From contig NIVC01000084.1 of assembly GCA_002269645.1 (NCBI GenBank), positions 1,056,144 through 1,120,143 of the forward strand: 64,000 bases of DNA, read 5' to 3'. Shown here in pieces: positions 3,802 through 32,291 of this stretch. The notes under the pieces were generated by a model that did not search any database, was not told where the DNA came from, and worked only from the letters and a program-made list of their open reading frames with translations. Position numbers and translations under genes: made by a program. Positions within the stretch are counted from its first letter, which is position 1. Every line of letters starts with the position of its first letter. Origin of the DNA: Macrostomum lignano. Taxonomy: Eukaryota.

Positions 3802-3885
3802 AGTAGTATACGTTTTTTTGACACAAAGCCGATTTCCTTATGGCGAAATACATAGTAAGTACAGGCCCAAAAAAATGGCAGAGTC
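3802..3885 (+). repeat. Polinton left TIR (84 bp perfect; patchy similarity continues to ~4025)
   Basis: Exact reverse complement of 23300-23383; begins with the AGTAGT terminal repeat. Confidence 0.97.
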
Positions 3886-4360
3886 CGAAATTTCATGTGC
3901 ACGCAGTCTGAAATTCCGTGTGCACGCAGTCTGAAATTCCAAGTGCACGCTAAATATCTTTTACGCAACGTGATTATTCAGACGAATTGCATATCCACCT
4001 GTCCAAAATACAAGTAACCAATTCTAACAATGGTGACACAAACACACTTCAAAGGATTCCATTCAAGACAAATTTACTCCAAAGCTATTCACACATTTCA
4101 AGTGTTATTGAAATATTGAAAACTTGCGAATATTATCACCCTTTTGAAGAAAGATAGTAAGTGATCTATTCTTGAGTGCCTATAGAATTTTTGCACCAAC
4201 TTGAGCAGATGGTTTACAGATACTATGTCAACAACCACGTCAACATGCTTCTTCTTTACTATATATATATATACGAACACACTGACACAGAAAATATTCA
4301 ATAACTCAAACCAAGTATACATTATACTACTTGTTCAACTATACGTACATCTTAAGAGAA

Positions 4361-5268
4361 ATGAAGCGATCACGTCAGCAGGAATTGGCCGAGCGCTATG
4401 TTAAACAAGGTAAGATAATCACCTACTCTAGTTCAGTTTTCTTTTTAGATTGACAGTTTGCTAGTTTAGTTTCTAGATTGATTGTTAGTTCGTTTTCTGT
4501 TTAGACCTATCCTCTTTTAGCTCAGTTTACATTGATTCTCTGCTAGTTCAGTCTCTAGATTGATTCTCTGCTAGTTCAGTCTCTAGATTGATTCTCTGCT
4601 AGTTCAGTCTCTAGATTGATTCTCTGCTAGTTCAGTCTCTAGATTGATTGTCTGCTAGTTCAGTTTCTGTTTAGACTGATTCTCTGCTAGTTCAGTTTCT
4701 ATATACATTATTTACATGCACCTATACCAAATTTTCCCTCATCTTATCCATTATTACAGCATTCAAGAATGGTGTCTTCACGCAGCCACCTCCAGATCAG
4801 TGCAAACGCATTTGCCATGCCACCACCACATCCAATTCTGCTGCAAGAGCATCATACTACTCTACATCTCTCGCCAAAGTAACCTCGATTCATGTCGAGA
4901 GACAGACAACTGAGCTAGATCGCATTTACACAAGAACTGATGTTATTCAGTCAATTAGGCAGCAATCGAACCCACGACCAACTGACCAACTGCAGTATGC
5001 ACCACCACCATCACCAACCAGCTACAATGACCCAACAGAGCAAGCTTGCAGTGGACCTACAAGTACCAAACCAACGATAGCAAATGAAACACCGTCATCA
5101 TCAATTGCTATTTCTACCCAAGTTCAACAGCTGCTAAACTCACCAATTATTGTACAGAAGGACATCAAGTCTGTAAAAGTCTCTCAAACAAGCACAGGCT
5201 TCTACCAAGTAGAATTAACAAAAACCTGTAATACAACTCAAGTATTTGAGTATTGGGACCTATCTTAA
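4361..5268 (+). CDS. Polinton orphan gene, two exons (4361-4409, 4760-5268), 185 aa, Ser/Thr/Pro-rich middle
   Basis: ATG-initiated exon MKRSRQQELAERYVKQ ends at CAAG|GTAAGA (phase 1). A stop-free frame 4675-5268 lacking any ATG has the acceptor TTATTACAG| at 4759 in matching phase (G+CA=Ala). Absent from the ORF track. Confidence 0.7.
4540..4700. repeat. 28-bp tandem repeat (CTGCTAGTTCAGTCTCTAGATTGATTCT) inside the predicted intron 4410-4759
   Basis: About 5 near-perfect copies, with degenerate copies upstream. Confidence 0.85.
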
Positions 5269-5796
5269 AAAGACATTTTTTCTAAATCTTCATCAAATTT
5301 TGCCAGCAATATGTCCAAGTAATTGCTCTTTTAGTATATATCAAACAAGTATGTAATCAATAATATAATCTCTATAAATTCATTATTCTAAAAAATTCTC
5401 TCAATTTTATTCATCATTCATTGAAATTATTTAATTCAATATAAAGTCAATATCCTGTACAGTTATCATTAAACAAAAATATTAATCCATGCAAATAAAC
5501 TTTTTCAATATTCTTAAACTTGTATTAAATGCTTCTTTAATTTTTTTCTTACAAACTAAAAATGTAATAATGGTACATATTTAACAACAAAAAATTATAT
5601 ACAGTATTTAACTACAGTTACACTAATCAATAAAAATGATACAGTAATACAAAAATACTAAAACACAACACAAATGCAAGTAAATATATAATCATAAAAT
5701 GCTAGTTTACTTTTGCAAGAAAAATATTAATACAACAACACTCCACTCAGGAAAACATACAAAAATATTAAAGCAAATAATTGTAATAAAAGAAAA

Positions 5797-5802
<6 letters not shown>

Positions 5803-5833
<31 letters not shown>
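5803..5833. repeat. (CA)n microsatellite in the AT-rich Polinton spacer
   Basis: Direct reading. Confidence 0.9.
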
Positions 5834-5835
<2 letters not shown>

Positions 5836-6243
5836 AAATATTTACAAAATTGTAATCAAATCCACATAAGACAAGAATTAGTAAATAAAAAACTAAATAT
5901 TTTCAAATATTAAATGTACTAATTAAGTTTTTGTTTAAAAAATATACTATTTGCTTTATTATACACTATATATTTTTCTCCATCTATTGGGTTTAATATT
6001 TCTAGTGATCAAAGCTTTTTAAACAATCATTTTCTAGGTTTTATAAAAAATATATAAAAAAGTTATATGTCTAAATGCTTCTTATAATTTTTATATAATG
6101 AATGAAAACTATGAAAACTATTTTTTATTACAGTTAATCAACAGAAAATAAAGGAGATAGGCAACTTTTGAAAAAGTAAATAAAAAGTAAAAGTAATTTC
6201 AGTTCGAAAAAGAAAGCGTCAAAAATAAACACAATCAAAGTAA

Positions 6244-6797
6244 TCAATTAGCAACTAGAGTTGCGTCCGAATCTATGGTTGATTCCTCTAGCCTACTCAA
6301 GCCATGCTGAGTGCTTGCAACTTCTGCTTGATTTAATCCATATGGCGTCGATGTAACTATTTTAGCTATTCGACGAGGAGACTGCCAGTTGTCATTGTCA
6401 ATTGTGCCCGAGGAAGAACCACAATTGGTAATAGGTGCTTTATTAGGAGTTACAGCTGACACACTTGTCAATGCCGTCTCTTCCATCATTTTAGTACCAC
6501 CAGTAGCAGGTGAACTAAAAGTAATTGAAAGACAGTTAACTTTTAATTAATAATATTCTTTTTACAGTGTATCAAAGCCAAGACCAGAAAAATAGCTTAC
6601 ATGCTCTTCTTCCAATATCGCAATCGAAATGCGACAACAACAACGCACATGACAGCAATGACAGCTACAATAATAACCTGAACCAGACCAATTCTTTCGG
6701 TTTGGCTCACTAATTTGTCGATATTGCTCACTAGCTTACTAATAGATTCCGCATTTCCCTGAACTAAAATTACAACTTTATTAGTTTGGGGTACCAT
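6244..6797 (-). CDS. Polinton single-pass membrane protein, two exons (6797-6601, 6514-6244), 155 aa
   Basis: Donor AGCAT|GTAAGC at 6600 and acceptor TTACTTTTAG| at 6515 are both phase 2 (86-bp intron) and join the two minus-strand ORFs. Hydrophobic helix IGLVQVIIVAVIAVMCVVVVAF is followed by basic RLRYWKKS. Confidence 0.7.
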
Positions 6798-7119
6798 TTT
6801 CTTCTAAACTAAATAAAAATATGCAAGACAAACAAAAGAAATTCTCTAAAATAAAAGGCACACCTATAACAATAATCCAGCTCTAGACTCTAAACTATGA
6901 ATCAACGTAAAGAAAATCTCCGTTTCAAAAATAAATTTTTTATTATATAAATATAACAAAAAATCGTAAACTAATACTTTGTAACTAATTAGAAATATTA
7001 AGTTTGCCAACTGTTAAACTTAAATACTTGAGCAAAATATAGGTATGGATGTAGGTACGATTAGCTACATTAATTTGTAAAAATTATCTTTCTTAAGCAT
7101 GCGGAAAATACGTTTCTTT

Positions 7120-7850
7120 AGCCATGGTCTGGCTTTTGCCTCATGATTTAGCCGTATGCTCCGACTTTTGCCTCAACAGTATGATTTAGTCGTATGGTCC
7201 GACTTTTATCCCAACAGTATGATTTAGCTGTGGTCCAGCTTTTACCTCAACAGTTTTTTAGCCGTGGTCCGGCTTTTTTTGCAACAGTATTATTTAGCTG
7301 TGGTCTAGCTTAAAACTGAATCAACAGTGATTTAGTTATAGTCCAGGCTTAACTACCTCAACGATGATTTAGCTATAGTCCAGGCTTAACTGTCTCAACA
7401 GTAATTTTAGCTGTAGTCCAGACTTAACTGCCTCAACAGTGATTTTAGCTGTGGTCCAGGCAACTGTCTCAACAGGGATTTAGCTGTAGTCCGATTAGCT
7501 TAACTGTCCAGTTATTTAGCTGTGAGCCAAGCAGCAGCACCCGTCTCAACAGTGAGAATTAGCTATGGTCAGCTTTACCTCAACTGTGATTTGGCTGCTG
7601 TGGTCTAGCATAACTGACTCAACAGTAATTTTAGCTGTAGTCGTCCAGCTTAACCACCCGTCCAGTTTTATAACCATGGTCCAGCTTAACCACCGTCTCA
7701 ACGAACAGCGATTTAGTCGTGGTCCAGCTTAACCGTCTCAACGTACAGTGATTTAGCCATGGGTCTAGTAGCAATTAACCGTATCAATAGTGATTTAGCC
7801 GTGGTCCAGCTTAACTGTCTCAACACAGTAATTTAGCTTAGTCCAAACAG
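7120..7850. repeat. Degenerate ~35-bp tandem array (consensus ~GATTTAGCTGTGGTCCAGCTTAACTGTCTCAACAGT), ~20 units
   Basis: Units vary by indels; no reading frame is maintained on either strand. Confidence 0.85.
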
Positions 7851-8547
7851 CATTTGTGTGTCAACTGCACTGACTGCATGCGGTTATAGCAGCGGCAGTC
7901 ATTATAGTCCCAACAAGCTGCGCGTCGCAGCATGATAGTGTAACTCTATATAGCTTCTGCTCAATATAGGACTGCAAAAGCTGAGTTGCAACTATACCTT
8001 TTTCTGTTTGAAAAGTAACACTCTATATATAGGTTACTCAAGCAATCTCTTGTCATCGTGCGAGCTAAAAAATTCCAACATGCAAGCAAAACTTTCAATA
8101 AATTAATTTCATAGCACCGCGTGCAGCTTATTTTTACTCTAAAATCCAAGATTGCTAATTTTTCAAGTCGCAAAATATTTTAATTACATTCTACTTGAGA
8201 ACAAAACCAATCTAATGAAGCAACAACCAGCAGTCTTCTTATTAAACGCTTGCCATCGTGTTACTCTTGCAAATTTATAACTAGTGTGCCTAAGATTCAT
8301 TAATTTTATTGTATAAAATATCAACCTGCATTTGCGTAAAATTAGACCTAATTGTGCAACCCACAATAGAAACTTATGCCACCTTTGGCACGCAACATGC
8401 CTTAATCAGCACGCAACAATTAAATTTGTTTACTAGTTCACAAACAGCATGCAATGCTTGCTATAAATACAAGACCCGAAATGGTCAATTTTTCATGAGC
8501 TCAATCATTACAGCAAAAGAAATACTATATTCAATTGCTTGTAAGAC

Positions 8548-9774
8548 ATGGCAGCTTGCATCAAGACGGAGTCAATTGTACGCTCCGACTCGAGTCCGAT
8601 TTTCTACGTTGGAGAGCAGTCTACAACCACGACTGGTTCGTCCTGCCAGTTTCGATCTATTGCGTGGAAACCATCAATCGAGTGTACAAAATGGTACCCA
8701 ATTATATTGCAAACCAAGGCTCCAATGGAGCTTTTTCGTGGAATCGCAGAAAGGCCAGAGCTCGATCATCCGTCTTGCAGACACGACTCTCGCGACGCAG
8801 TAAGTGTCCAATTTCATCCAGACAGCTGCGATAAGGAACTCTTCCACTCTCTCCGGTGAGCACCATATTTAATTTATACAATTAATTTTAAAAACTTTTA
8901 AAAATTTAAAAAACAAATATTCATAATTTATATAATGTTTTGCAGTCAAGTCGAAAAAGGTCTATCGGGCAAGTTGAACGAGATTCAAGATGCTCGACCC
9001 TTGGCACGACTAACAAAACCAGCTCATCAGCATGCTAACGACGTCCTCGAGTTTGTGCCTCAACAATGGCTGGCTATAAAGCCTGCTTACCCTTGTGCCA
9101 CAATCAGGATCAGCAACGATCATCCACACGGGAAGGAGGTGTCCATTTCCGATTTCAAAGGTGTCAGCGGTACCTACCAAATGACAGTGCAAGCAACGAG
9201 CTTGTATTGTCCAAAAGGCAGCCTCGTCTGGCGCATTACATTCGCTGTGCGCTCTCTAACGCTCATAGAATCTTCCGACAACATGTTGCAGCGCCTTGAC
9301 ATGTTCAAGGGAGTGCTTGCACACCTACCTGCGACCAAGCCAGCAATTAGAAGCAGGAGTCCGTCCCCAACGTCTACCCATGACCAAGAAGAAGCAGATG
9401 AACAAAGCCGGCAGAATTCAAGCCAGGTGACGCCTGCCAAGTCACCTGCAAAGCGTCGGTCTACCACCACCGTATCGAAGAAGTCGACTCCATCGAATGC
9501 AGCGCCAGCATCTATTGAACCGGTGGCTAAAAAGCAAGTTCGCAAACGCAGCGGTGCAAAACAGCAAAACAATTCTGCCGAAGCTGGTGCAGATGGCACA
9601 GACTGGGTGAAGGCACCACCAGCAAAGATCTTGGTGAGTACACCTGCCTCTGGAACCCGGGTAGCGTCCAAGGAGACAGCATTTTTAAAGCATGCTGCTG
9701 CTGCTGCTGCGGACGCTACTACAGCTAGCGTGTATTCATCGGACGATTCGTACAGCAGCTCTGATGATGAGTAA
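8548..9774 (+). CDS. Polinton spliced gene (8548-8855, 8946-9774), 378 aa; putative OB-fold single-stranded DNA-binding protein with acidic tail
   Basis: Donor CCG|GTGAGC and acceptor TTTTGCAG| are both phase 2 (CG+T=Arg) around a 90-bp AT-rich intron. The SSB call rests on resemblance only: IILQTKAPMELFRG, terminal beta-strands MTVQATSLY...WRITFAVRSL, and tail SSDDSYSSSDDE. Confidence 0.65.
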
Positions 9775-9983
9775 CAAAATTTTTGACTAATTTTATCCAA
9801 GTTTTAACTAACTTAATTCCACTATATTTATCAAATTTTTGGCTAGGGAAATATTATTTTTAGGGAAAAGCTCAAAACATTTTTGCTACTCCTTGTACGC
9901 CAACCAGGTTTTGTTACTTAATATTAGAATTTACAATAGTATAGTCTTGTTAATTTTTTTTTATTATTTACTTTCCGTTTTAG

Positions 9984-10541
9984 CGACTTGTCCTATTAAT
10001 AGTTACTGCGAGTCTGAAGCTGCGTCCGTTTGAAAAATTTGATTTAAAGCAGACCAAACAGAAGCTACAGACCAGAAACCGGTTTTGCAAACTATTCCTA
10101 AGCCGACCAACAATGCTAAAGACAATTTATTCAAACGCAAAAATCCAACTTTATCCAGCAGGAAAACTAACTATATATGGCTGTAAATCAAATTCTCAGA
10201 TAGTTTCAGTTTTACGATTTATCAACGATACTATTAATTGTGTAGATTTTGATTCAGTAAAAATTCAGAGCAGTACCTATGTCGGCTTTATTGGTCATCT
10301 TTGGCCAAAATTCGGTTTCTCTAGTCTAAAAAGATATGCAGGCTACTATTCGAATTATCTGGTTGGATACGATGCAGAAAATTTCCCACAAGCAGTTTCT
10401 GTTAGATCAAAATCAAAACCAAGACTTTTTTGTAACATATTTTTTTCGAAAAAGTTTGTTATTATGGGCGTTCAAAACACTCATGAATTGAATAATATTC
10501 TTAACCATGTCAAGGATTTTTTAATCTCTGTTAATAACTAA
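9984..10541 (+). CDS. Divergent TATA-binding-protein (TBP)-like protein; 185 codons open from a splice acceptor, 5' start unresolved
   Basis: Two TBP half-repeats: KIQLYPAGKLTIYGCKS ~ ALIFSSGKMVCTGAKS; VKIQSS ~ FKIQNM; YDAENFPQAVSVRSKSKPRLFCNIFFSKKFVIMG ~ [32 protein letters not shown]. The frame extends upstream of ATG 10113 to 9984 (RLVLLIVTASLKLRPFEKFDLK), right after CTTTCCGTTTTAG. Confidence 0.85.
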   Translation, partial: RLVLLIVTASLKLRPFEKFDLKQTKQKLQTRNRFCKLFLSRPTMLKTIYSNAKIQLYPAGKLTIYGCKSNSQIVSVLRFINDTINCVDFDSVKIQSSTYVGFIGHLWPKFGFSSLKRYAGYYSNYLVGYDAENFPQAVSVRSKSKPRLFCNIFFSKKFVIMGVQNTHELNNILNHVKDFLISVNN

Positions 10542-10769
10542 ACTTAACAAGTAAACAGTTGCTGTCAAATCGCAGTTGCGATGCATTATTTTACAAACAT
10601 TTTGTCTTGTTTTCATTTCTTTACCAATTGTTTTCTCTAATAGTAAACGTGCCAGCTATAACCCAATCTAACTAACCAAATCATCATTTTTCTTACAGCC
10701 GCAAATGACAAACCGGATCATCTATTAATATTATGCTCGATACGCTCGTTGTCGAGCTAGGTGCACACA

Positions 10770-21165: not shown

Positions 21166-21166
21166 C

Positions 21167-22489
21167 ATGAATCATTTGCTTGGACCTGATATTGCTGCTC
21201 TTAAAAGTGAATTGTCGCTATTTGATCAAAGTCCTGTTCAGTTTAGTGTTTTGGATAATCGGTATACTAACATTCAACCGCAACATGGTATTACAAAAGG
21301 ATCACCTATCGAATTTGAGGTTGTGCCTGCAGGCGATTTGTATTTGGATCTACAAGAAACTGTGCTCACGGTATGCTTCAGCGTTAGTGATAGTGAAGGT
21401 GAACCTATAGATGCAACAAAAAATTTTGTTTGTTTGAATAATTTGGCTATTGGAACATTGTTTGAAGACGTTCAATTTACTATTGGCGATACTGTAGTTG
21501 AAGGTGGTAGTTTTATGTATCCATACAAGGCTATGCTTCTTACATTACTGGAATACGGACATACAGCTCAGAAGGCTGGTTTACTACCGTGGGGATTTTA
21601 CAAGGATACAGCTGGTAAAATGAATGCAACAAGTGAAAACGATGGACGAACAAAGAGGCAGGCGCTTATTGCTAACAATAGGCGGTGCACTGTATCGGGG
21701 CCGTTATTCTTGGATTTGTTTCGTCAGCCTCGGTATCTACTATCAAAGACACCACTGCGGATCAAGCTCATACCGGCAAAAAGTAAATTTGTCCTGAGCG
21801 GGTCAACATTAGAAGCTGGTGCGGTATTAAAAGACTATGAGATCAAGTTTTTGCGTGCAGAACTACGATTGCGGTTTGTTCAACCCTCGCCGAGTGTTAT
21901 CAGTGCACATGCTCATGGACTTAAAAGTCACAATGCATTATATCCGCACCGAAGTCTAAGCCTTGGTACGTTTACTATACCCCGAGGATCGTCTAGCCAT
22001 ACGCATGAAAATTTGTTTCCTAGTGGAGTACCACGGCTTTTATTGATGGCAATCGTAAGCAACAAGGCATTCAATGGAAGCATGGACACTAATCCGTTCA
22101 ACTTTGAGCATGCAAATGTGAGCAGCATTGGTGTGTTTGTGAATGGAGACTCGGTACCATCGCGTCCGCTGCAGACAAACTTTGGAGATGATTGTGTGAC
22201 AGAGTATAATTTTTTGCTACAACAGCTTGGAATCTATCTACAGGGACGAGATATTGGATTTAATATGCTGGATTACGGTAATGGTTACTCAATTTTTGCA
22301 TTCAGTCTTGGAAGTGAACCTGGTGTCGGACGAGGAGTGCAACTGTATAAGGAAGGAAATGTAAAACTAGAGTTACGCTTCAATGCTGCAACTAGTACCG
22401 TGTACAACGTCATATTTGGAGGTATATTTGACAAGCAACTGCAACTGACTGAACTTCGCGACATTGTTCCTGGCACAGTATGGAAGTAA
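21167..22489 (+). CDS. Major capsid protein (double jelly-roll, Polinton/adintovirus type), 440 aa, intact
   Basis: KSELSLF..SPVQ...PIEF....LYLDL..T.L; LFRQPRYL....PLRIKL; P.RLLMA.V.N.AF.G....NPFNF; C-terminal G.V.LELRF. Confidence 0.92.
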   Translation: MNHLLGPDIAALKSELSLFDQSPVQFSVLDNRYTNIQPQHGITKGSPIEFEVVPAGDLYLDLQETVLTVCFSVSDSEGEPIDATKNFVCLNNLAIGTLFEDVQFTIGDTVVEGGSFMYPYKAMLLTLLEYGHTAQKAGLLPWGFYKDTAGKMNATSENDGRTKRQALIANNRRCTVSGPLFLDLFRQPRYLLSKTPLRIKLIPAKSKFVLSGSTLEAGAVLKDYEIKFLRAELRLRFVQPSPSVISAHAHGLKSHNALYPHRSLSLGTFTIPRGSSSHTHENLFPSGVPRLLLMAIVSNKAFNGSMDTNPFNFEHANVSSIGVFVNGDSVPSRPLQTNFGDDCVTEYNFLLQQLGIYLQGRDIGFNMLDYGNGYSIFAFSLGSEPGVGRGVQLYKEGNVKLELRFNAATSTVYNVIFGGIFDKQLQLTELRDIVPGTVWK

Positions 22490-23043
22490 TTGATTCTATC
22501 CTAGATCGTGGAGTAACAGATCGCTTCCTTCGCAATGTTGTATCGAAATTGTGCGCACATTTTTTAAATGTTGTATTTCTTGGTGTTTTTCCTCAAAACT
22601 TTGTTGGTGGACTTAGACGCTTACCTTTAGACGGTAAAGACTATTTTTTTATCGTTAATACTGACGTCTCTAACCTGCCCGGAAAACATTGGGTATGCGT
22701 TTGGGTTTATGGTCATCGAGCAGGTCGCGGTAGCAAACGACTTGGTGAATATTTTGATTCTCTTGGTCTAGTACCATTGCCAAGAATAGCAAAATGGCTA
22801 GGAAAAGAATGTGGAAATTCGAAAAATTGGTGTTATAGTCGCTTTGCTATCCAAGACCCGCAGAGTGGAAGTTGTGGATTTTGGGTAATTTTTTATATTT
22901 TTCATAAGTTGACTACCAGAGGAAACCTAGAGTGTTTTATTCGAAGCGTTTTTAAACGGAATATAATTCGCACTGGTTCGTTTCGATACTTGTATGGTAA
23001 ATTACGCAATTTTGTTTTACGAGTGCTGCCTCAATATTTGTAA
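22480..23043 (+). CDS. Adenain/Ulp1-like cysteine maturation protease, 187 aa, intact
   Basis: FLGVFP, IVNTD...PGKHWV, EYFDSLG, IQ...SGSCGFW (His-Asp-Gln-Cys). Confidence 0.93.
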   Translation: MEVIDSILDRGVTDRFLRNVVSKLCAHFLNVVFLGVFPQNFVGGLRRLPLDGKDYFFIVNTDVSNLPGKHWVCVWVYGHRAGRGSKRLGEYFDSLGLVPLPRIAKWLGKECGNSKNWCYSRFAIQDPQSGSCGFWVIFYIFHKLTTRGNLECFIRSVFKRNIIRTGSFRYLYGKLRNFVLRVLPQYL

Positions 23044-23299
23044 ACTCGCTAATTTGTGCGTCAAATTGTGTTTATATCTAGTTGAAATATACAATATACT
23101 GCTTGAAAAGAAGAATTTAAATGCGTTAAGTTATACGTGAAATAAGCTTTGTGTCAAATTGAATTTTGGTTGGGCTTGTAATTAGCAGCATTCATTGCGG
23201 ATAGAATTTAGGTGGATAGACAGGTGTTTGCGTAAAAGTGATTCAGCTAATTGGTTAATTCATTGCGTAAAAGCTAGTTTGCGTGCACGGCAAATTTCA

Positions 23300-23383
23300 G
23301 ACTCTGCCATTTTTTTGGGCCTGTACTTACTATGTATTTCGCCATAAGGAAATCGGCTTTGTGTCAAAAAAACGTATACTACT
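23300..23383 (-). repeat. Polinton right TIR (84 bp perfect; patchy similarity inward to ~23155)
   Basis: Reverse complement of 3802-3885. Confidence 0.97.
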
Positions 23384-23639
23384 GACATCGGCAGAAGACG
23401 CTGACTCCAGCTGCTGGCCCCGAGGAGCCGGACTGGGCGAGCGTGGCCGACTGCCTTCAGCAGGAGGTGAAGGACGTTGAGAAGCTGTGAGTGCCGCTGG
23501 CTGGCTTGAATTGTGGTAGAGAATTATTCAGGAAACAGCTCGACATGACTGTGTCTGTGTTGATGTCTGTCTGTCTGTCTGTCTGCCTGTCTGTCTGTCT
23601 GTCTGCCTGTCTGTCTGTCTGCCTGTCTGTCTGTCTGCC

Positions 23640-23750: not shown

Positions 23751-26700
23751 GTCTCTGTCTCTCTAGCTGTCTGCTAAAAGCCGCTATGTCTACTCACAGC
23801 AGTAGCCTGTGCGCATGTTTCCCAATTCATCACAGTAGTTTGGCATTGAGCCAGAGGCCGTCGATTCCCCATTCAGCTTCCAGGAGCAGTTGGACATGGA
23901 GACTCGAACCGCGGAGATGCAGAATGTGTTCAGTGGGCTGGCAATCAAAGATTGCAAAGATATCCACCCCTACCTGGTAAGTCAGTGCTGAGCATCATTA
24001 GCATTTATTGAGGATTCTCACCATTGCAATTCGCTTATCATAAGATTTACAATAGCTAATGCCGGTGCACTCACAGGTGTCTCTGCTCACCGAGAAGCTG
24101 GGTCTCGAGTATTTCACCAAAGTGCAGGCTGAGACTCTGCCGCTGGTGCTGGCTGGCAAAGATGTGCTCATCAAGACTCAGACTGGCTCAGGTGAGTCCT
24201 GCTGATAAGCTCCATAGAACTGATGTACTCAGAACAGCTCAGTGCGCACTGAGAGTTCAGCACAGCCACGGTGCATTCAGCACAGCCATGGTGCATTCAG
24301 CACAGCCATGGTGCATTCAGCACAGCCATGATGCATTCAGCACAGCCATGGTGCATTCAGCACAGCCATGATGCATTCAGCACAGCCATGATGCATTCAG
24401 CACAGCCATGATGCATTCAGCACAGCCATGACACATTCAGCACAGCCATGATGAATTCAGCACAGCCATGATGCATTCAGCACAGCCCCACTATCCTGAT
24501 GCACTCTTATTGCCCCCCCTCCGTCGCAGGCAAGTCTCTCGCCCTTCTGCTCCCGCTGGTGCAGCAGCTGCAGGCGGTGCAGCCGCCGCTGAGCCGCAGC
24601 TCGGGCACGCAGGCGCTGGTGCTGTGCCCCACACACGAGCTGGCAGAGCAGAGCCACAGCTTGCTGCAGCAGCTGCTCCGCCCCTTCGTCCGTATCGTCA
24701 GCGGCCAGCTGGTCGGCGGGGTGAAGCGCAAGTCGCAGAAGGCGTCGCTGCGCCGCGGTCTCAACATCCTGGTTGCCACACCGCGCCGCCTGTTGGACCA
24801 CCTGGAGCGGAGCAGCCGGCTGCACCTGGGCTCCGGCATCCGGATGCTCATCATCGACGAGGCAGACCGCCTGGCCGAGCTCGGCTTCGAGCGCGACGTC
24901 CGGCGCATCGTTGAGGCCGTCTGCGCCTGCGGCCGCCGCCCACAGACCCTGCTGTGCTCGGCCACCCTCACTGATGGAGCTGAGGGGCTGGCCGGCCTGG
25001 CGCTCAGCCAGCCCAGCTGCGTCTCCGAAGAAGCCGCCCTGCCGGCCAGCGTGCAGCACTTTGTGCTGGCCGCCCCCACCCGCATGCGGCTGCGCGCCCT
25101 GCTGTCCGCCCTGCGGCCCGCCCTGGCCGCCGGACACAAGGCCGCCCTGTTCCTGCCTACCCAGGTCTGACTGCCTGCCTGATGTCTTTCTGGCTGTATG
25201 TCTGTGTCAGTCTGTCCACCTGTCAGTCTGTCCACCTGTCAGTCTGTCCACCTGTCAGTCTGTCCACCTGTCAGTCTGTCCACCTGTCAGTCTGTCCACC
25301 TGTCAGTCTGTCCACCTGTCAGTCTGTCCACCTGTCAGTCTGTCCACCTGTCAGTCTGTCCACCTGTCAGTCTGTCCAGCTATCAGTCTGTCCAGCTATC
25401 AGTCTGTCCACCTGTCAGTCTGTCCACCTGTCAGTCTGTCCACCTGTCAGTCTGTCCACCTGTCAGTCTGTCCACCTGTCAGTCTGTCCAGCTATCAGTC
25501 TGTCCAGCTATCAGTCTGTCCACCTGTCAGTCTGTCCACCTGTCAGTCTGTCCACCTGTCAGTCTGTCCACCTGTCAGTCTGTCCACCTGTCAGTCTGTC
25601 CAGCTATCAGTCTGTCCACCTGTCAGTCTGTCCACCTGTCAGTCTGTCCACCTGTCAGTCTGTCCACCTATCAGTCTGTCCACCTGTCAGTCTGTCCACC
25701 TGTCAGTCTTTGTTACTCTGTCCACCTGTCAATCAGTCTGTCCACCTGCCAATCAGTCTGTCAGTCTGTCCACCTGCCAATCAGTCTGTGTCAGTCTGTC
25801 CACCTGCCAATCAGTCTGTGTCAGTCTGTCCACCTGTCAGTCTGTCTGTGTCAGTCTGTCCACCTGTCAGTCTGTCTGTGTCAGTCTGTCAACCTAACCC
25901 TAACCCTAACTCTCCCTCTTCCCAGTCATCAAATTTCTGTAATCTTACTACTCCGTCTATTGTGCTTCTAATATAAGTTCTCCACTCTCTGTCTATCTCC
26001 ATCGCTGCTTCCGCGAAGATGAGCTTTCATTTCCATTCACGCCTCAATATCCCCCAGGCTTCCGTAGACTTTCACCACGGCCTGCTGTCCGCTCTGCTCT
26101 CCGACTCCGTGCCGCTGTGCCGTCTCCATGGCAACCTGGCGCACGCGGACCGCATCAGGGCCTTCCGCGAGTTCGCCAGCCGCGGCGGCTCCGGCCTCCT
26201 TGTCACCACCGACGTCAGCGCCCGCGGCCTGGACTTGAGCCGCCTCTCCTGGGTCATCCAGGGCCCCGGCGAGCCGCAGCTCTACTGCCACCGCGCCGGC
26301 CGCACCGCTCGCCTCGGCCGGCCGGGCCGCTGCCTCCTCCTGCTGGACTCCGCCGAGGTGGCGCCCTATCTGCGCCTGCTGACAGCCCCGGACAGCCCCG
26401 GCCGTAGTCTCCGATTTGCCCCGGTGCCAGCGGGCCGCCTGATGGCCCGCTGCTGTCCGGAAAACTTCGGCCAGCTCACCCAGCTGGTGGCTGACACCGA
26501 GCAGCTCCGGGCGCTGGCTGAGGACGCTTTCGTGTCCACCGTGCGGGCCCGCGCCACCTTCGCAGGGGACCTCCGCGCTGCCCTGCCCATGCCGCACCTG
26601 GGCCATCTGGCCTCCAGCTTCTGCCTGGCCGACCCGCCCGGCGTCATCGCCGCCAACGCCCGCCGGCGGCGGCACCCGGAGGCGGTGGAGGCTGCGGAGG

Positions 26701-26816
26701 CTGCGGCCGCGTCCGCCAAGACTGAGCGGAGAACTTCGAAGGTTTCGGCCGGACGTCGGGTTCGGACGGGAGGCGCCGCCGTGGACAGGCTGTCCGAGTT
26801 TGCCAGCGGCATCTGA
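23384..26816 (+). CDS. DDX31: Host DEAD-box RNA helicase DDX31/DBP7; exons 23384(partial)-23486, 23877-23976, 24077-24191, 24530-25164, 26058-26816; 5' end cut off by the Polinton
   Basis: All four introns are GT-AG and phase-consistent. Q motif, [38 protein letters not shown]...IHPYL and terminal LSEFASGI resemble DDX31. Confidence 0.85.
23555..23762. repeat. (TGTC)n-type microsatellite in the first visible DDX31 intron
   Basis: Direct reading. Confidence 0.95.
24255..24487. repeat. 20-bp minisatellite (TTCAGCACAGCCATGATGCA) in a DDX31 intron
   Basis: About 11 copies. Confidence 0.92.
25200..25890. repeat. 16-bp minisatellite (TGTCAGTCTGTCCACC) in a DDX31 intron
   Basis: About 40 copies; accounts for the repetitive ORFs at 24773-25976. 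Confidence 0.95.

Positions 26817-27984: not shown

Positions 27985-32291
<4,307 letters not shown>

Follow-up and report, generated by a model that had tools for sequence, protein, structure and literature searches.

A TBP-like gene, TATAAG boxes and a candidate SSB-TBP splice suggest a possible early-to-late switch in a Polinton of Macrostomum lignano

What use could an animal Polinton make of TBP-like and SSB-like genes of its own? The question is raised by a 19.6-kb Polinton in Macrostomum lignano contig NIVC01000084.1, which occupies positions 3802-23383 of the 64,000-nucleotide stretch analyzed here (the window) and has AGTAGT...ACTACT ends. A preliminary description had presented it as a full-length Polinton with perfect terminal inverted repeats (TIRs), every core virion, replication and integration gene, and a ~6.5-kb left arm acquired as a step toward autonomy. 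Our analysis (Table 1) led us to favor, by a modest degree of confidence, another reading: the left arm would be an early unit in which the SSB exons are spliced either on their own or onto the TBP exon, and the altered TBP would drive the virion genes via TATAAG(C/T) boxes.

Table 1. Features of the Polinton, in window coordinates
Feature	Position	Strand	Basis or remark
Left terminal inverted repeat	3802..3905	+	Begins AGTAGT
Gene without assigned function, probably two exons	4361..5268	+	Exons inferred from GT/AG signals
Segment absent from short form	5506..7107		Holds membrane-type ORF; copy comparison
Small predicted membrane protein	6244..6797	-	66-aa ORF 6597-6797, one hydrophobic segment, hydropathy peak 3.2
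Degenerate tandem repeat, unit ~36 nt	7117..7850		Copy number differs among copies
Canonical TATA box upstream of SSB start	8462..8469	+	Motif scan
SSB exon 1	8548..8855	+	Missed in earlier coordinates
SSB intron, 90 nt, GT..AG	8856..8945	+	Skipped in contigs of runs X1, X9
SSB exon 2	8946..9774	+	Completes T7 gp2.5/CP312R-like fold; disordered linker and acidic tail follow
TBP-fold exon, 185 aa	9984..10541	+	Directly after pyrimidine-AG acceptor, phase 0, without own start codon
Splice acceptor carrying host spliced leader	10697..10699	+	One contig of run X9
Terminal protein (TP) - Gly linker - OTU-like - pPolB polyprotein	10770..15007	+	Two frame breaks in window copy
Segment absent from short form	11645..14805		OTU-like, exonuclease, polymerase domains; copy comparison
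dUTPase	15300..15775	+	PF00692 in two pieces; frame break in window copy
TATAAG box	15841..15846	+	More on + strand at 17018, 18058, 18454, 19275, 20657, 21009, 22346
PLA2-like (PLA2X/PW-type) protein	15901..16320	+	PF08398
Packaging ATPase	16323..17011	+	Walker A visible; frame break in window copy
Putative penton/minor capsid protein	17069..18055	+	Position and homology; frame break in window copy
pX-like basic protein	18113..18475	+	Pfam scan
Conserved ORF without assigned function	18549..19237	+	Frame break in window copy
rve integrase with chromodomain	19505..20665	+	PF00665, 5.3e-8
Basic core-like protein	20707..21165	+	Homology
Major capsid protein (MCP), double-jelly-roll-like lead	21167..22489	+	Cluster likeness
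Adenain-like maturation protease	22480..23043	+	PF00770, weak at 0.033
Right terminal inverted repeat	23280..23383	-	Sequence comparison of ends

The TIRs open with (AGT)2, a trait of Polintons/Mavericks (PMC8097293). They are 104 nt long and 96% identical, so the perfect match claimed for them holds for the outer 84 nt but not for the full repeats. Likewise, the TIRs and core genes of a full-length element are present, but the window copy itself is compromised: the hexamers bordering it (ATTGTA on the left, GACATC on the right) form no target-site duplication but are found next to the opposite ends of two further long-form stretches, indicating that the window joins two insertion sites. A 6-bp target-site duplication was found in 5/8 sister copies with both ends read. 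Six frames are broken in the window copy—in the TP linker, pPolB C-terminus, dUTPase, ATPase, penton and the ORF at 18549-19237—and none of these breaks occurs in the other long-form stretches read. The left arm exists as described, but it is mostly AT-rich spacer and tandem repeat, with ~2.5 kb coding. Its first gene (4361-5268) was found in both the long and the short form of the window family and had no tblastn match in 7 divergent relatives. The small membrane protein reported for the arm is present as a minus-strand ORF of membrane type, possibly spliced to a Ser/Thr-rich exon (6244-6510) for which Pfam gave no match; a relative has a comparable ORF, but the identity of 18% across 49 aa does not establish homology.

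The core gene set was also recovered, albeit with a weak protease match and no direct family match for the penton, and the dUTPase, placed in the left arm by the preliminary description, lies downstream of pPolB. The names TP and OTU for parts of the polyprotein follow PMC11161782 and characteristic motifs, and pPolB matched PF03175 in Pfam (6.2e-20). The MCP was closest to double-jelly-roll clusters (atlas score 0.98, 231-233 features, PF21738 on 14-30% of members), with no match in Pfam, NCBIfam or PDB sequences; NCBIfam returned nothing for the five window proteins scanned. Moreover, homologues of the ATPase, penton and protease adjoin pPolB, integrase and MCP in a metagenomic Polinton (L117).

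The SSB and TBP genes proved to be a stable part of the family. We found uninterrupted frames for both SSB exons and TBP in 19/19 family copies (17/17 short, 2/2 long), and SSB and TBP recur in 7/7 divergent relatives with MCP identities of 66-81%. The flanks from two insertion sites and the six frames broken in the window only could suggest that the arm arose by misassembly or was captured only once; its presence in these copies and relatives, and in contigs of independent runs, refutes this view, to which we attach practically no weight. Beyond this family, two distant Polinton clades in the M. lignano genome carry TBP-like genes (three clades in total), as do metagenomic Polintons, which argues against the proposal that this lineage newly captured TBP, SSB and dUTPase and is moving toward large-DNA-virus autonomy. 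In its favor are an SSB model resembling large-DNA-virus SSBs, a deoxynucleoside kinase carried by relatives (absent from the window subfamily), and constraint, the TBP codons of the long and short forms differing by 5 synonymous and 2 non-synonymous changes. However, the TBP-like protein shares only 22% identity with host TBP and 16% with the host's TRF2-like protein, and falls among environmental TBP-like proteins in a reduced FastTree with weak deep support (28/52 inner branches open); the element encodes no RNA polymerase, leaving it reliant on host Pol II; and pPolB is missing from its most frequent form. We regard the three genes as old and widespread, the recent-capture reading as largely refuted and a path to autonomy as improbable. 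Nor are the genes themselves new to published adintovirus and MELD maps. Starrett 2021 labels TBP, dUTPase and SSDBP singly on related viruses, dUTPase and SSDBP being labels on animal adintovirus maps (Fig. S2 text), and the TBP label appearing there only in the Fig. 5 legend, for MELD viruses and related elements in the non-animal dataset section. The bare list of TBP, SSB and dUTPase is less new than had been supposed.

As judged from its predicted structure, the SSB-like gene is a two-exon protein with an SSB-type fold resembling T7 gp2.5 and CP312R, upholding the original call with an upstream exon added. The best solved match was CP312R of ASFV (8hw5; Z 9.1, rmsd 5.7, 172 aligned), which we take to act as an SSB, followed by T7 gp2.5 (Z 4.9) and the Enc34 SSB (Z 4.4); the model has a mean pLDDT of 57.7 and included the translated intron. 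Pfam gave no match for the SSB exons. Contigs of two runs (X1 and X9), whose kind is presumed to be RNA by guess only, have intron 1 spliced out.

The TBP-like call stands equally well, with a Pfam TBP match (PF00352, 2e-7) and a model (pLDDT 90.6) showing a complete two-lobed, two-repeat saddle fold; the best 40 PDB rows listed all contain TBP, at a TM of ~0.7 and ~20% identity. Relatives could be found only with a profile, a single-sequence search yielding 35 candidates and none at E<=0.001, and two TBP alignments run against viral contigs gave 79 and 15 pattern matches with no locus confirmed. With residue roles taken from PMC12529657 and TBP background, the set of four intercalating Phe and paired Asn that marks TATA-binding TBP is incomplete. 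Both C-lobe Phe are kept in 6/6 clade members, and so is the acidic stirrup (D130 and E132), the part of TBP that contacts TFIIB; the N-lobe has no Phe at either site, with Tyr at one and the other lost; and both Asn of host TBP are gone. In 6/6, the two remaining Phe, a neighboring Pro and a Tyr show no variation. A predicted complex with host TFIIB scored 0.48 (best control, 0.00; partner pLDDT at least 74), with runs agreeing in at least 0% of contacts. The score mark was reached by 51/78 solved and 2/108 mismatched pairs, and scores of 0.60 or below comprise just 5/78 solved pairs, yet all 4 mismatches that passed. Since TBP-TFIIB is a solved textbook pair, the prediction may pass by likeness, and it lends weak support to a contact between the two proteins.

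How the TBP exon is expressed is suggested by its surroundings. Its frame starts at an AG, in phase 0, in 9/9 copies, and the window contains no ATG between the SSB stop and the TBP acceptor. In addition, a phase-0 GTRAG donor precedes the SSB stop by 42-50 codons in 9/9 copies (position 9634 in the window), against a background of 24/79 Val-Ser sites, the nine copies representing only 5 lineages. The conserved donor and the TBP frame lacking a start codon together suggest an SSB-TBP fusion, in which the TBP exon is likely spliced onto SSB via the donor at 9634. The contig matches listed for four runs, presumed to be RNA, include no 9633-to-9984 join.

Two kinds of box were found, sorted by gene class. 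A canonical TATA box precedes SSB in 8/9 copies, 67-106 nt upstream in 7/9. The non-canonical TATAAG, by contrast, occurs within 260 nt upstream of penton and MCP (9/9 each), pX (8/9), core and PLA2X (7/9 each), protease (6/9) and integrase (5/9), but not of SSB, TBP or TP (0/9 each), and is mostly missing before the ATPase (1/7), dUTPase (2/9) and the 18549 ORF (2/8). Within 15001-23383, TATAAGC appears 6 times vs 0.51 expected and a maximum of 3 in 200 shuffles. We consider TATAAG(C/T) a candidate promoter box shared by the virion genes. The boxes ahead of MCP and protease sit within coding sequence, so protein constraint could help to preserve them. Other TBP-bearing clades and metagenomic Polintons showed no regular TATAAG pattern; box and TBP are hence not tied one to one, and TATAAG was ruled out as a mark of all TBP-bearing Polintons. 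No TBP-less Polinton that could serve as a clean control for the boxes was found.

These data leave room for two other accounts of TBP. It could be a stand-alone protein whose start codon comes from a host leader ending in AUG, joined to the 9984 acceptor by trans-splicing, with a role that could be the same. The AUG would be in frame (phase 0), flatworm leaders end in an ATG able to serve as start (PMC12582326), the leader is found at the following acceptor (10698, upstream of TP-pPolB) in one X9 contig, and an AG acceptor likewise opens 5/7 of the divergent TP-pPolB frames tested. However, we place this account below the fusion because it leaves the donor conserved in 9/9 SSB tails unexplained, and the contig matches listed show no leader join at 9984; we deem it unlikely as the sole route, although both joins may be used. 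As for the leader itself, its 24-mer has 58 genomic matches, and the one read has no donor after it, so not all 58 are leader-RNA genes. Alternatively, TBP could be a decoy that binds no promoter and ties up host TFIIB or other partners, leaving TATAAG to host TBP, which might use it given its closeness to TATA. The alteration of 2/4 DNA-intercalating Phe and both Asn beside an intact acidic stirrup agrees with such a role, as does the lack of a regular box pattern in other clades; yet against it stand the invariance of the remaining Phe, Pro and Tyr and the sharp division of the two box types between gene classes, which suggests a second reader. A pure decoy appears doubtful to us.

The family is dominated by a short, polymerase-less form. 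Its junction occurs at 30 places vs 3 for the long form (~10:1 in this assembly) and is identical in 17/17 fetched short copies and in runs X9 and X19; the short copies differ by ~0.1%, with other frames mostly open. Loss of the second absent segment leaves a terminal-protein ORF of 293-300 aa. As the short form keeps SSB, TBP, terminal protein, integrase and virion genes while the PF03175 polymerase is absent, it likely spreads as a defective element, which would borrow pPolB from a polymerase-bearing relative.

In the early-to-late switch that we favor, host TBP would start the left-arm unit from its canonical TATA box, alternative splicing would yield free SSB or the SSB-TBP fusion, and the altered TBP domain, perhaps by recruiting host TFIIB, would afterwards bring host RNA polymerase II to the TATAAG(C/T) boxes before the virion genes. 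A precedent is KSHV ORF24, which reads TATTWAA late promoters (PMC12529657). A more far-reaching version, which we put forward tentatively, is that SSB-TBP, as a single protein, loads on the strand displaced in protein-primed replication and activates TATAAG capsid genes only on replicating templates, using host Pol II and leader trans-splicing, and that the polymerase-less defective form, left with the terminal protein only, exploits this arrangement and has come to outnumber its helper.

A candidate activator, a box and young, presumably transcribed copies in a laboratory flatworm make the timing of Polinton genes, and whether animal Polintons run through a viral cycle, experimentally testable. 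The SSB-TBP fusion, if true, would couple late transcription to replication in an unusual manner, and the expansion of the polymerase-less form probably represents spread within an animal genome at the expense of a helper. Our literature search found no Polinton described with a TBP-linked box, with an SSB-TBP splice or with leader trans-splicing, no TP-retaining polymerase-less expansion, and no paper on such a switch.

Among known systems, the element belongs with animal Polintons/Mavericks (proposed Alpha-type adintoviruses; PMC8502044, PMC8097293), with which it shares AGTAGT ends, the rve integrase, a pPolB whose N-terminus carries TP and OTU-like parts, the MCP, PLA2-like and pX-like genes, a probable ATPase, protease and penton and, in some sister copies, the 6-bp target duplication. 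The proposed switch would work like the late system of beta/gammaherpesvirus vTBP, by analogy and not as a member of it: both would combine a viral TBP-like factor, a non-canonical TATA-like late motif and host Pol II. According to PMC12529657, KSHV ORF24 retains the four Phe, is without the acidic residues for TFIIB and depends on five further viral factors, whereas the Polinton TBP keeps the acidic stirrup, has two Phe sites altered and may be fused to SSB. The large vTBP with a Pol II-binding N-terminal domain and five partners is absent here, the TBP exon being 185 aa, and no herpesvirus-type partners were recognised among the window ORFs scanned. With cellular TBP/TRF2 (PF00352) and the TBP-like proteins of large DNA viruses the Polinton TBP has the complete two-lobed saddle in common, differing from the host proteins in its low identity (22%/16%) and missing start codon. 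The T7 gp2.5-type SSBs of large DNA viruses (ASFV CP312R, DUF2738) are the best structural matches of the SSB and share its acidic C-terminal tail, but the Polinton gene has a spliceosomal intron and an internal donor that would swap this tail for the TBP domain. The adenovirus E2 region yields an ssDNA-binding protein, terminal protein and polymerase from a single spliced early unit, and the left arm and polyprotein would resemble it in this respect; the adenovirus DBP has a different fold, and adenovirus is not known to encode a TBP. Finally, defective-interfering genomes and non-autonomous transposons arise by internal deletion with both ends kept and are amplified above their helper; the short form differs in losing just the polymerase domains and the membrane-type ORF, while a free terminal-protein ORF, the integrase and the virion module stay open.

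The element, which opens with AGTAGT and closes with ACTACT, is a true Polinton. As the preliminary description had proposed, it is complete: its ends were found together with the core gene set, with Pfam matches to pPolB (6.2e-20), an rve integrase with chromodomain, a PLA2-like protein, a pX-like protein, TBP (2e-7), dUTPase (split in two pieces) and, weakly, the protease. The MCP was closest to double-jelly-roll clusters (score 0.98), 14-30% of whose members carry PF21738, and the ATPase and penton were named by Walker A motif, position and homology. The terminal inverted repeats, first called perfect, are so over their outer 84 nt, the full 104 nt being only 96% identical; the dUTPase, initially placed in the left arm (the part before the terminal protein-polymerase polyprotein, TP-pPolB), actually lies right of pPolB.

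Locations of the features discussed (window coordinates unless a fetched stretch, L, is named)
Feature	Location	Remark
Polinton	3802-23383	19,582 bp
SSB exons	8548-8855, 8946-9774	
TBP-fold exon	9984-10541	
TP-pPolB	10770-15007	
dUTPase	15300-15775	
Conserved 18549 ORF	18549-19237	
Core gene	20707-21165	
Segments missing from short form	5506-7107, 11645-14805	all 17 short copies fetched
Insertion site	23384-23500 (L033 left flank)	GC-rich, exon-like sequence
DEAD-box helicase gene, SPB4/DBP7 type	24499-26816	~1 kb downstream of that site
Non-LTR retrotransposon, long open ORF	28470-32291	endonuclease, reverse transcriptase, RNase H by motif reading
Deoxynucleoside kinase	L075:1132-1800, L087:6329-7015; also L072, L084, L078	PF01712 1e-20 in two scanned

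The left arm is old and conserved, and judged from sequence it is likely to form an early unit. Its presence in 19/19 family copies and 7/7 divergent relatives (MCP 66-81% identical) argues against the one-off capture or misassembly that had been named as the refuting case. In all 17 short and both long copies the frames of the SSB exons and TBP stay open, and searching the genome with TBP yielded 83 matches (96 candidates scored), of which 26 span the full length at 99-100%. All seven relatives keep the order SSB exon 1, exon 2 and TBP before TP-pPolB, with dUTPase after—the co-occurrence with pPolB and MCP that the preliminary description had proposed checking. A deoxynucleoside kinase-like ORF, absent from the window's subfamily, stands between TBP and TP-pPolB in the five divergent relatives read. 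The membrane-ORF region is uncommon, a genome search having located it 5 times, with 3 of these places identical; in a further derivative (L050, G000:C105:565939-567136) it lies only ~3 kb from a penton gene that carries a 3.85-kb insertion.

The TBP model (pLDDT 90.6) is matched by solved TBPs at TM ~0.7 and ~20% identity, and also by viral TBP-like models. Compared with host TBP, the C-lobe Phe pair and acidic stirrup are kept, whereas the N-lobe sites are Tyr with no Phe and both Asn are lost. The roles of these residues are in part common background. Others are covered in the accessible text of PMC12529657. Complex prediction with host TFIIB (two exon pieces) scored 0.48 against 0.00 for the best control, within a range (up to 0.60) in which only 5 of the 78 solved pairs, yet all 4 passing mismatches, reached the pass mark; overall it was reached by 51/78 solved and 2/108 mismatched pairs. 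Contact agreement between runs was at least 0% and partner pLDDT at least 74. The modeling lends weak support to a pairing with host TFIIB, and since the two proteins form a textbook pair, the prediction may pass by likeness. The SSB model, translated through the intron and with a mean pLDDT of 57.7, had ASFV CP312R as its best solved match (Z 9.1, rmsd 5.7, 172 aligned), followed by T7 gp2.5 and Enc34 SSB; viral-library and Atlas matches suggested DUF2738-type proteins.

Contigs from presumed RNA runs X1 and X9 skip the 90-nt GT..AG intron between the SSB exons; those from X4 and X19 retain it. In 9/9 copies a pyrimidine-AG acceptor directly precedes the TBP frame, which begins in phase 0, and an in-frame Met upstream of the acceptor occurs in 1/9, inside the pyrimidine tract. 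This arrangement would also suit a stand-alone TBP started by the AUG of a trans-spliced host leader, as leaders of flatworms end in ATG (accessible text of PMC12582326). We regard that reading as unlikely, however, given that 9/9 copies (5 lineages) keep a phase-0 GTRAG donor in the tail of SSB, 42-50 codons ahead of its stop; among background Val-Ser sites, 24/79 read GTRAG. An SSB-TBP splice fusion is the likely arrangement predicted from these sites; no such join appeared among those listed for contigs of four runs. For TP-pPolB, an X9 contig carries 23 foreign letters directly before the acceptor at 10698, which with the next base match 58 genome places, many clustered, and which are the 3' end (final 23-24 nt) of the spliced leader of Macrostomum lignano given in the accessible text of PMC8629364. 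By this match, the genome very likely belongs to that flatworm or to a near relative. No GTRAG lies between TBP and the TP acceptor in 3/6 copies, which fits trans-splicing there, the leader itself being present in one contig. In the window's subfamily, a leader AUG at 10698 would give a frame of just 10 codons upstream of where TP-pPolB starts.

TATAAGC occurs 6 times on the coding strand of 15001-23383, where 0.51 would be expected and 200 shuffles gave at most 3; for TATAAG the count is 8 against an expected 2.4 (shuffle maximum 7). Within 260 nt upstream of each gene in nine copies, the box precedes penton and MCP (9/9 each), pX (8/9), core and PLA2X (7/9 each), protease (6/9), integrase (5/9), dUTPase (2/9), the 18549 ORF (2/8) and ATPase (1/7), with 0/9 each for SSB, TBP and TP; a canonical box stands before SSB in 8/9 copies. 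These two classes, split by gene, appear promoter-like. The TATAAG pattern was not found in the other TBP-bearing clades examined.

Most copies belong to a 14.7-kb short form (e.g., L048-L049) sharing both deletions, whose second junction was found at 30 genome places and in X9 and X19 contigs; the long form was found at 3 places, representing two insertion sites (one search scored 116 of 944 candidates). Short copies average 0.2-1.6 mismatches per gene (~0.1% divergence). The second deletion spares a terminal-protein ORF of 293-300 aa (in five copies read) that stops one codon past the junction, and takes out the OTU-like domain, the exonuclease and the polymerase, following the domain order in the accessible text of PMC11161782. 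We infer that the short form depends on a helper polymerase. Of eight sister copies with both ends read, five show a proper 6-bp target duplication. The window copy's left flank ends in ATTGTA, also found after the right end of a second long-form stretch, and its right flank starts with GACATC, also found before the left end of a third; the element's two flanks in the window thus come from different insertion sites, brought together by either mis-assembly or recombination. Flank hexamers are likewise swapped or shared between assembly contigs C4064/C593, C2693/C424, C3153/C753 and C4450/C3727, so that mis-joins across near-identical elements look common. The window copy has six broken frames; because their spans are open in 2/2 other long-form stretches and in 12-16 of 14-17 short copies (where present and recovered), these breaks are probably assembly noise.

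The TBP Pfam model matched at 150 scored places of 330 candidates in the genome; pPolB and MCP adjoin in 6/6 regions chosen by such matches, and a TBP-like ORF occurs in 5/7 regions chosen instead by MCP or pPolB. A profile built from the window's clade reached 123 proteins, 4 of them close; one family among the distant matches led to 10 metagenome loci with Polinton core genes at 8, one of which (L117) holds pPolB, integrase, MCP, ATPase, protease and penton. In metagenomic Polintons L112, L113, L117 and L119, a TBP-like gene lies on the opposite strand, with penton-like and protease genes to either side, and an upstream ORF overlaps it. A quick tree separated the TBP clades, none grouping with host TBP, with weak deep branches. 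A second Polinton clade in the same genome (L092, L095, L097, L100, L102, L104; MCP ~30% identical) carries a different TBP-like gene behind an ORF that gave no Pfam match and that we take, from its motif, to be exonuclease-like; of these copies, one also encodes PC4 (PF02229). A third clade (L128-L142, on C10, C4, C261, C416 and C181) has integrase, MCP, protease and ATPase, with a very divergent TBP-like gene in 4/5 and no pPolB match within the 30 kb retrieved about each locus.

The words TATA and TBP are absent from PMC11071296 and PMC11161782 (accessible text), TATA from PMC8097293, and promoter and transcription from PMC10748475. Within the searchable literature (subscription papers and Repbase lying outside it), no study turned up that describes a TBP-based switch in Polintons, splicing of SSB to TBP, trans-spliced leaders on Polinton messages or derivatives that keep TP. 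The gene combination, at first thought undescribed, is partly catalogued: in the accessible text of the adintovirus study PMC8502044 (the comparison also covered text of preprint 10.1101/697771), the Fig. 5 legend labels TBP, Fig. 6 labels dUTPase, and animal maps in the Fig. S2 text carry dUTPase and SSDBP; the study's figures and slide supplements may hold more. What stands out beside these maps is the likely joining of SSB to TBP by splicing, the promoter-like boxes in two classes and the spread of a form that lacks the polymerase.
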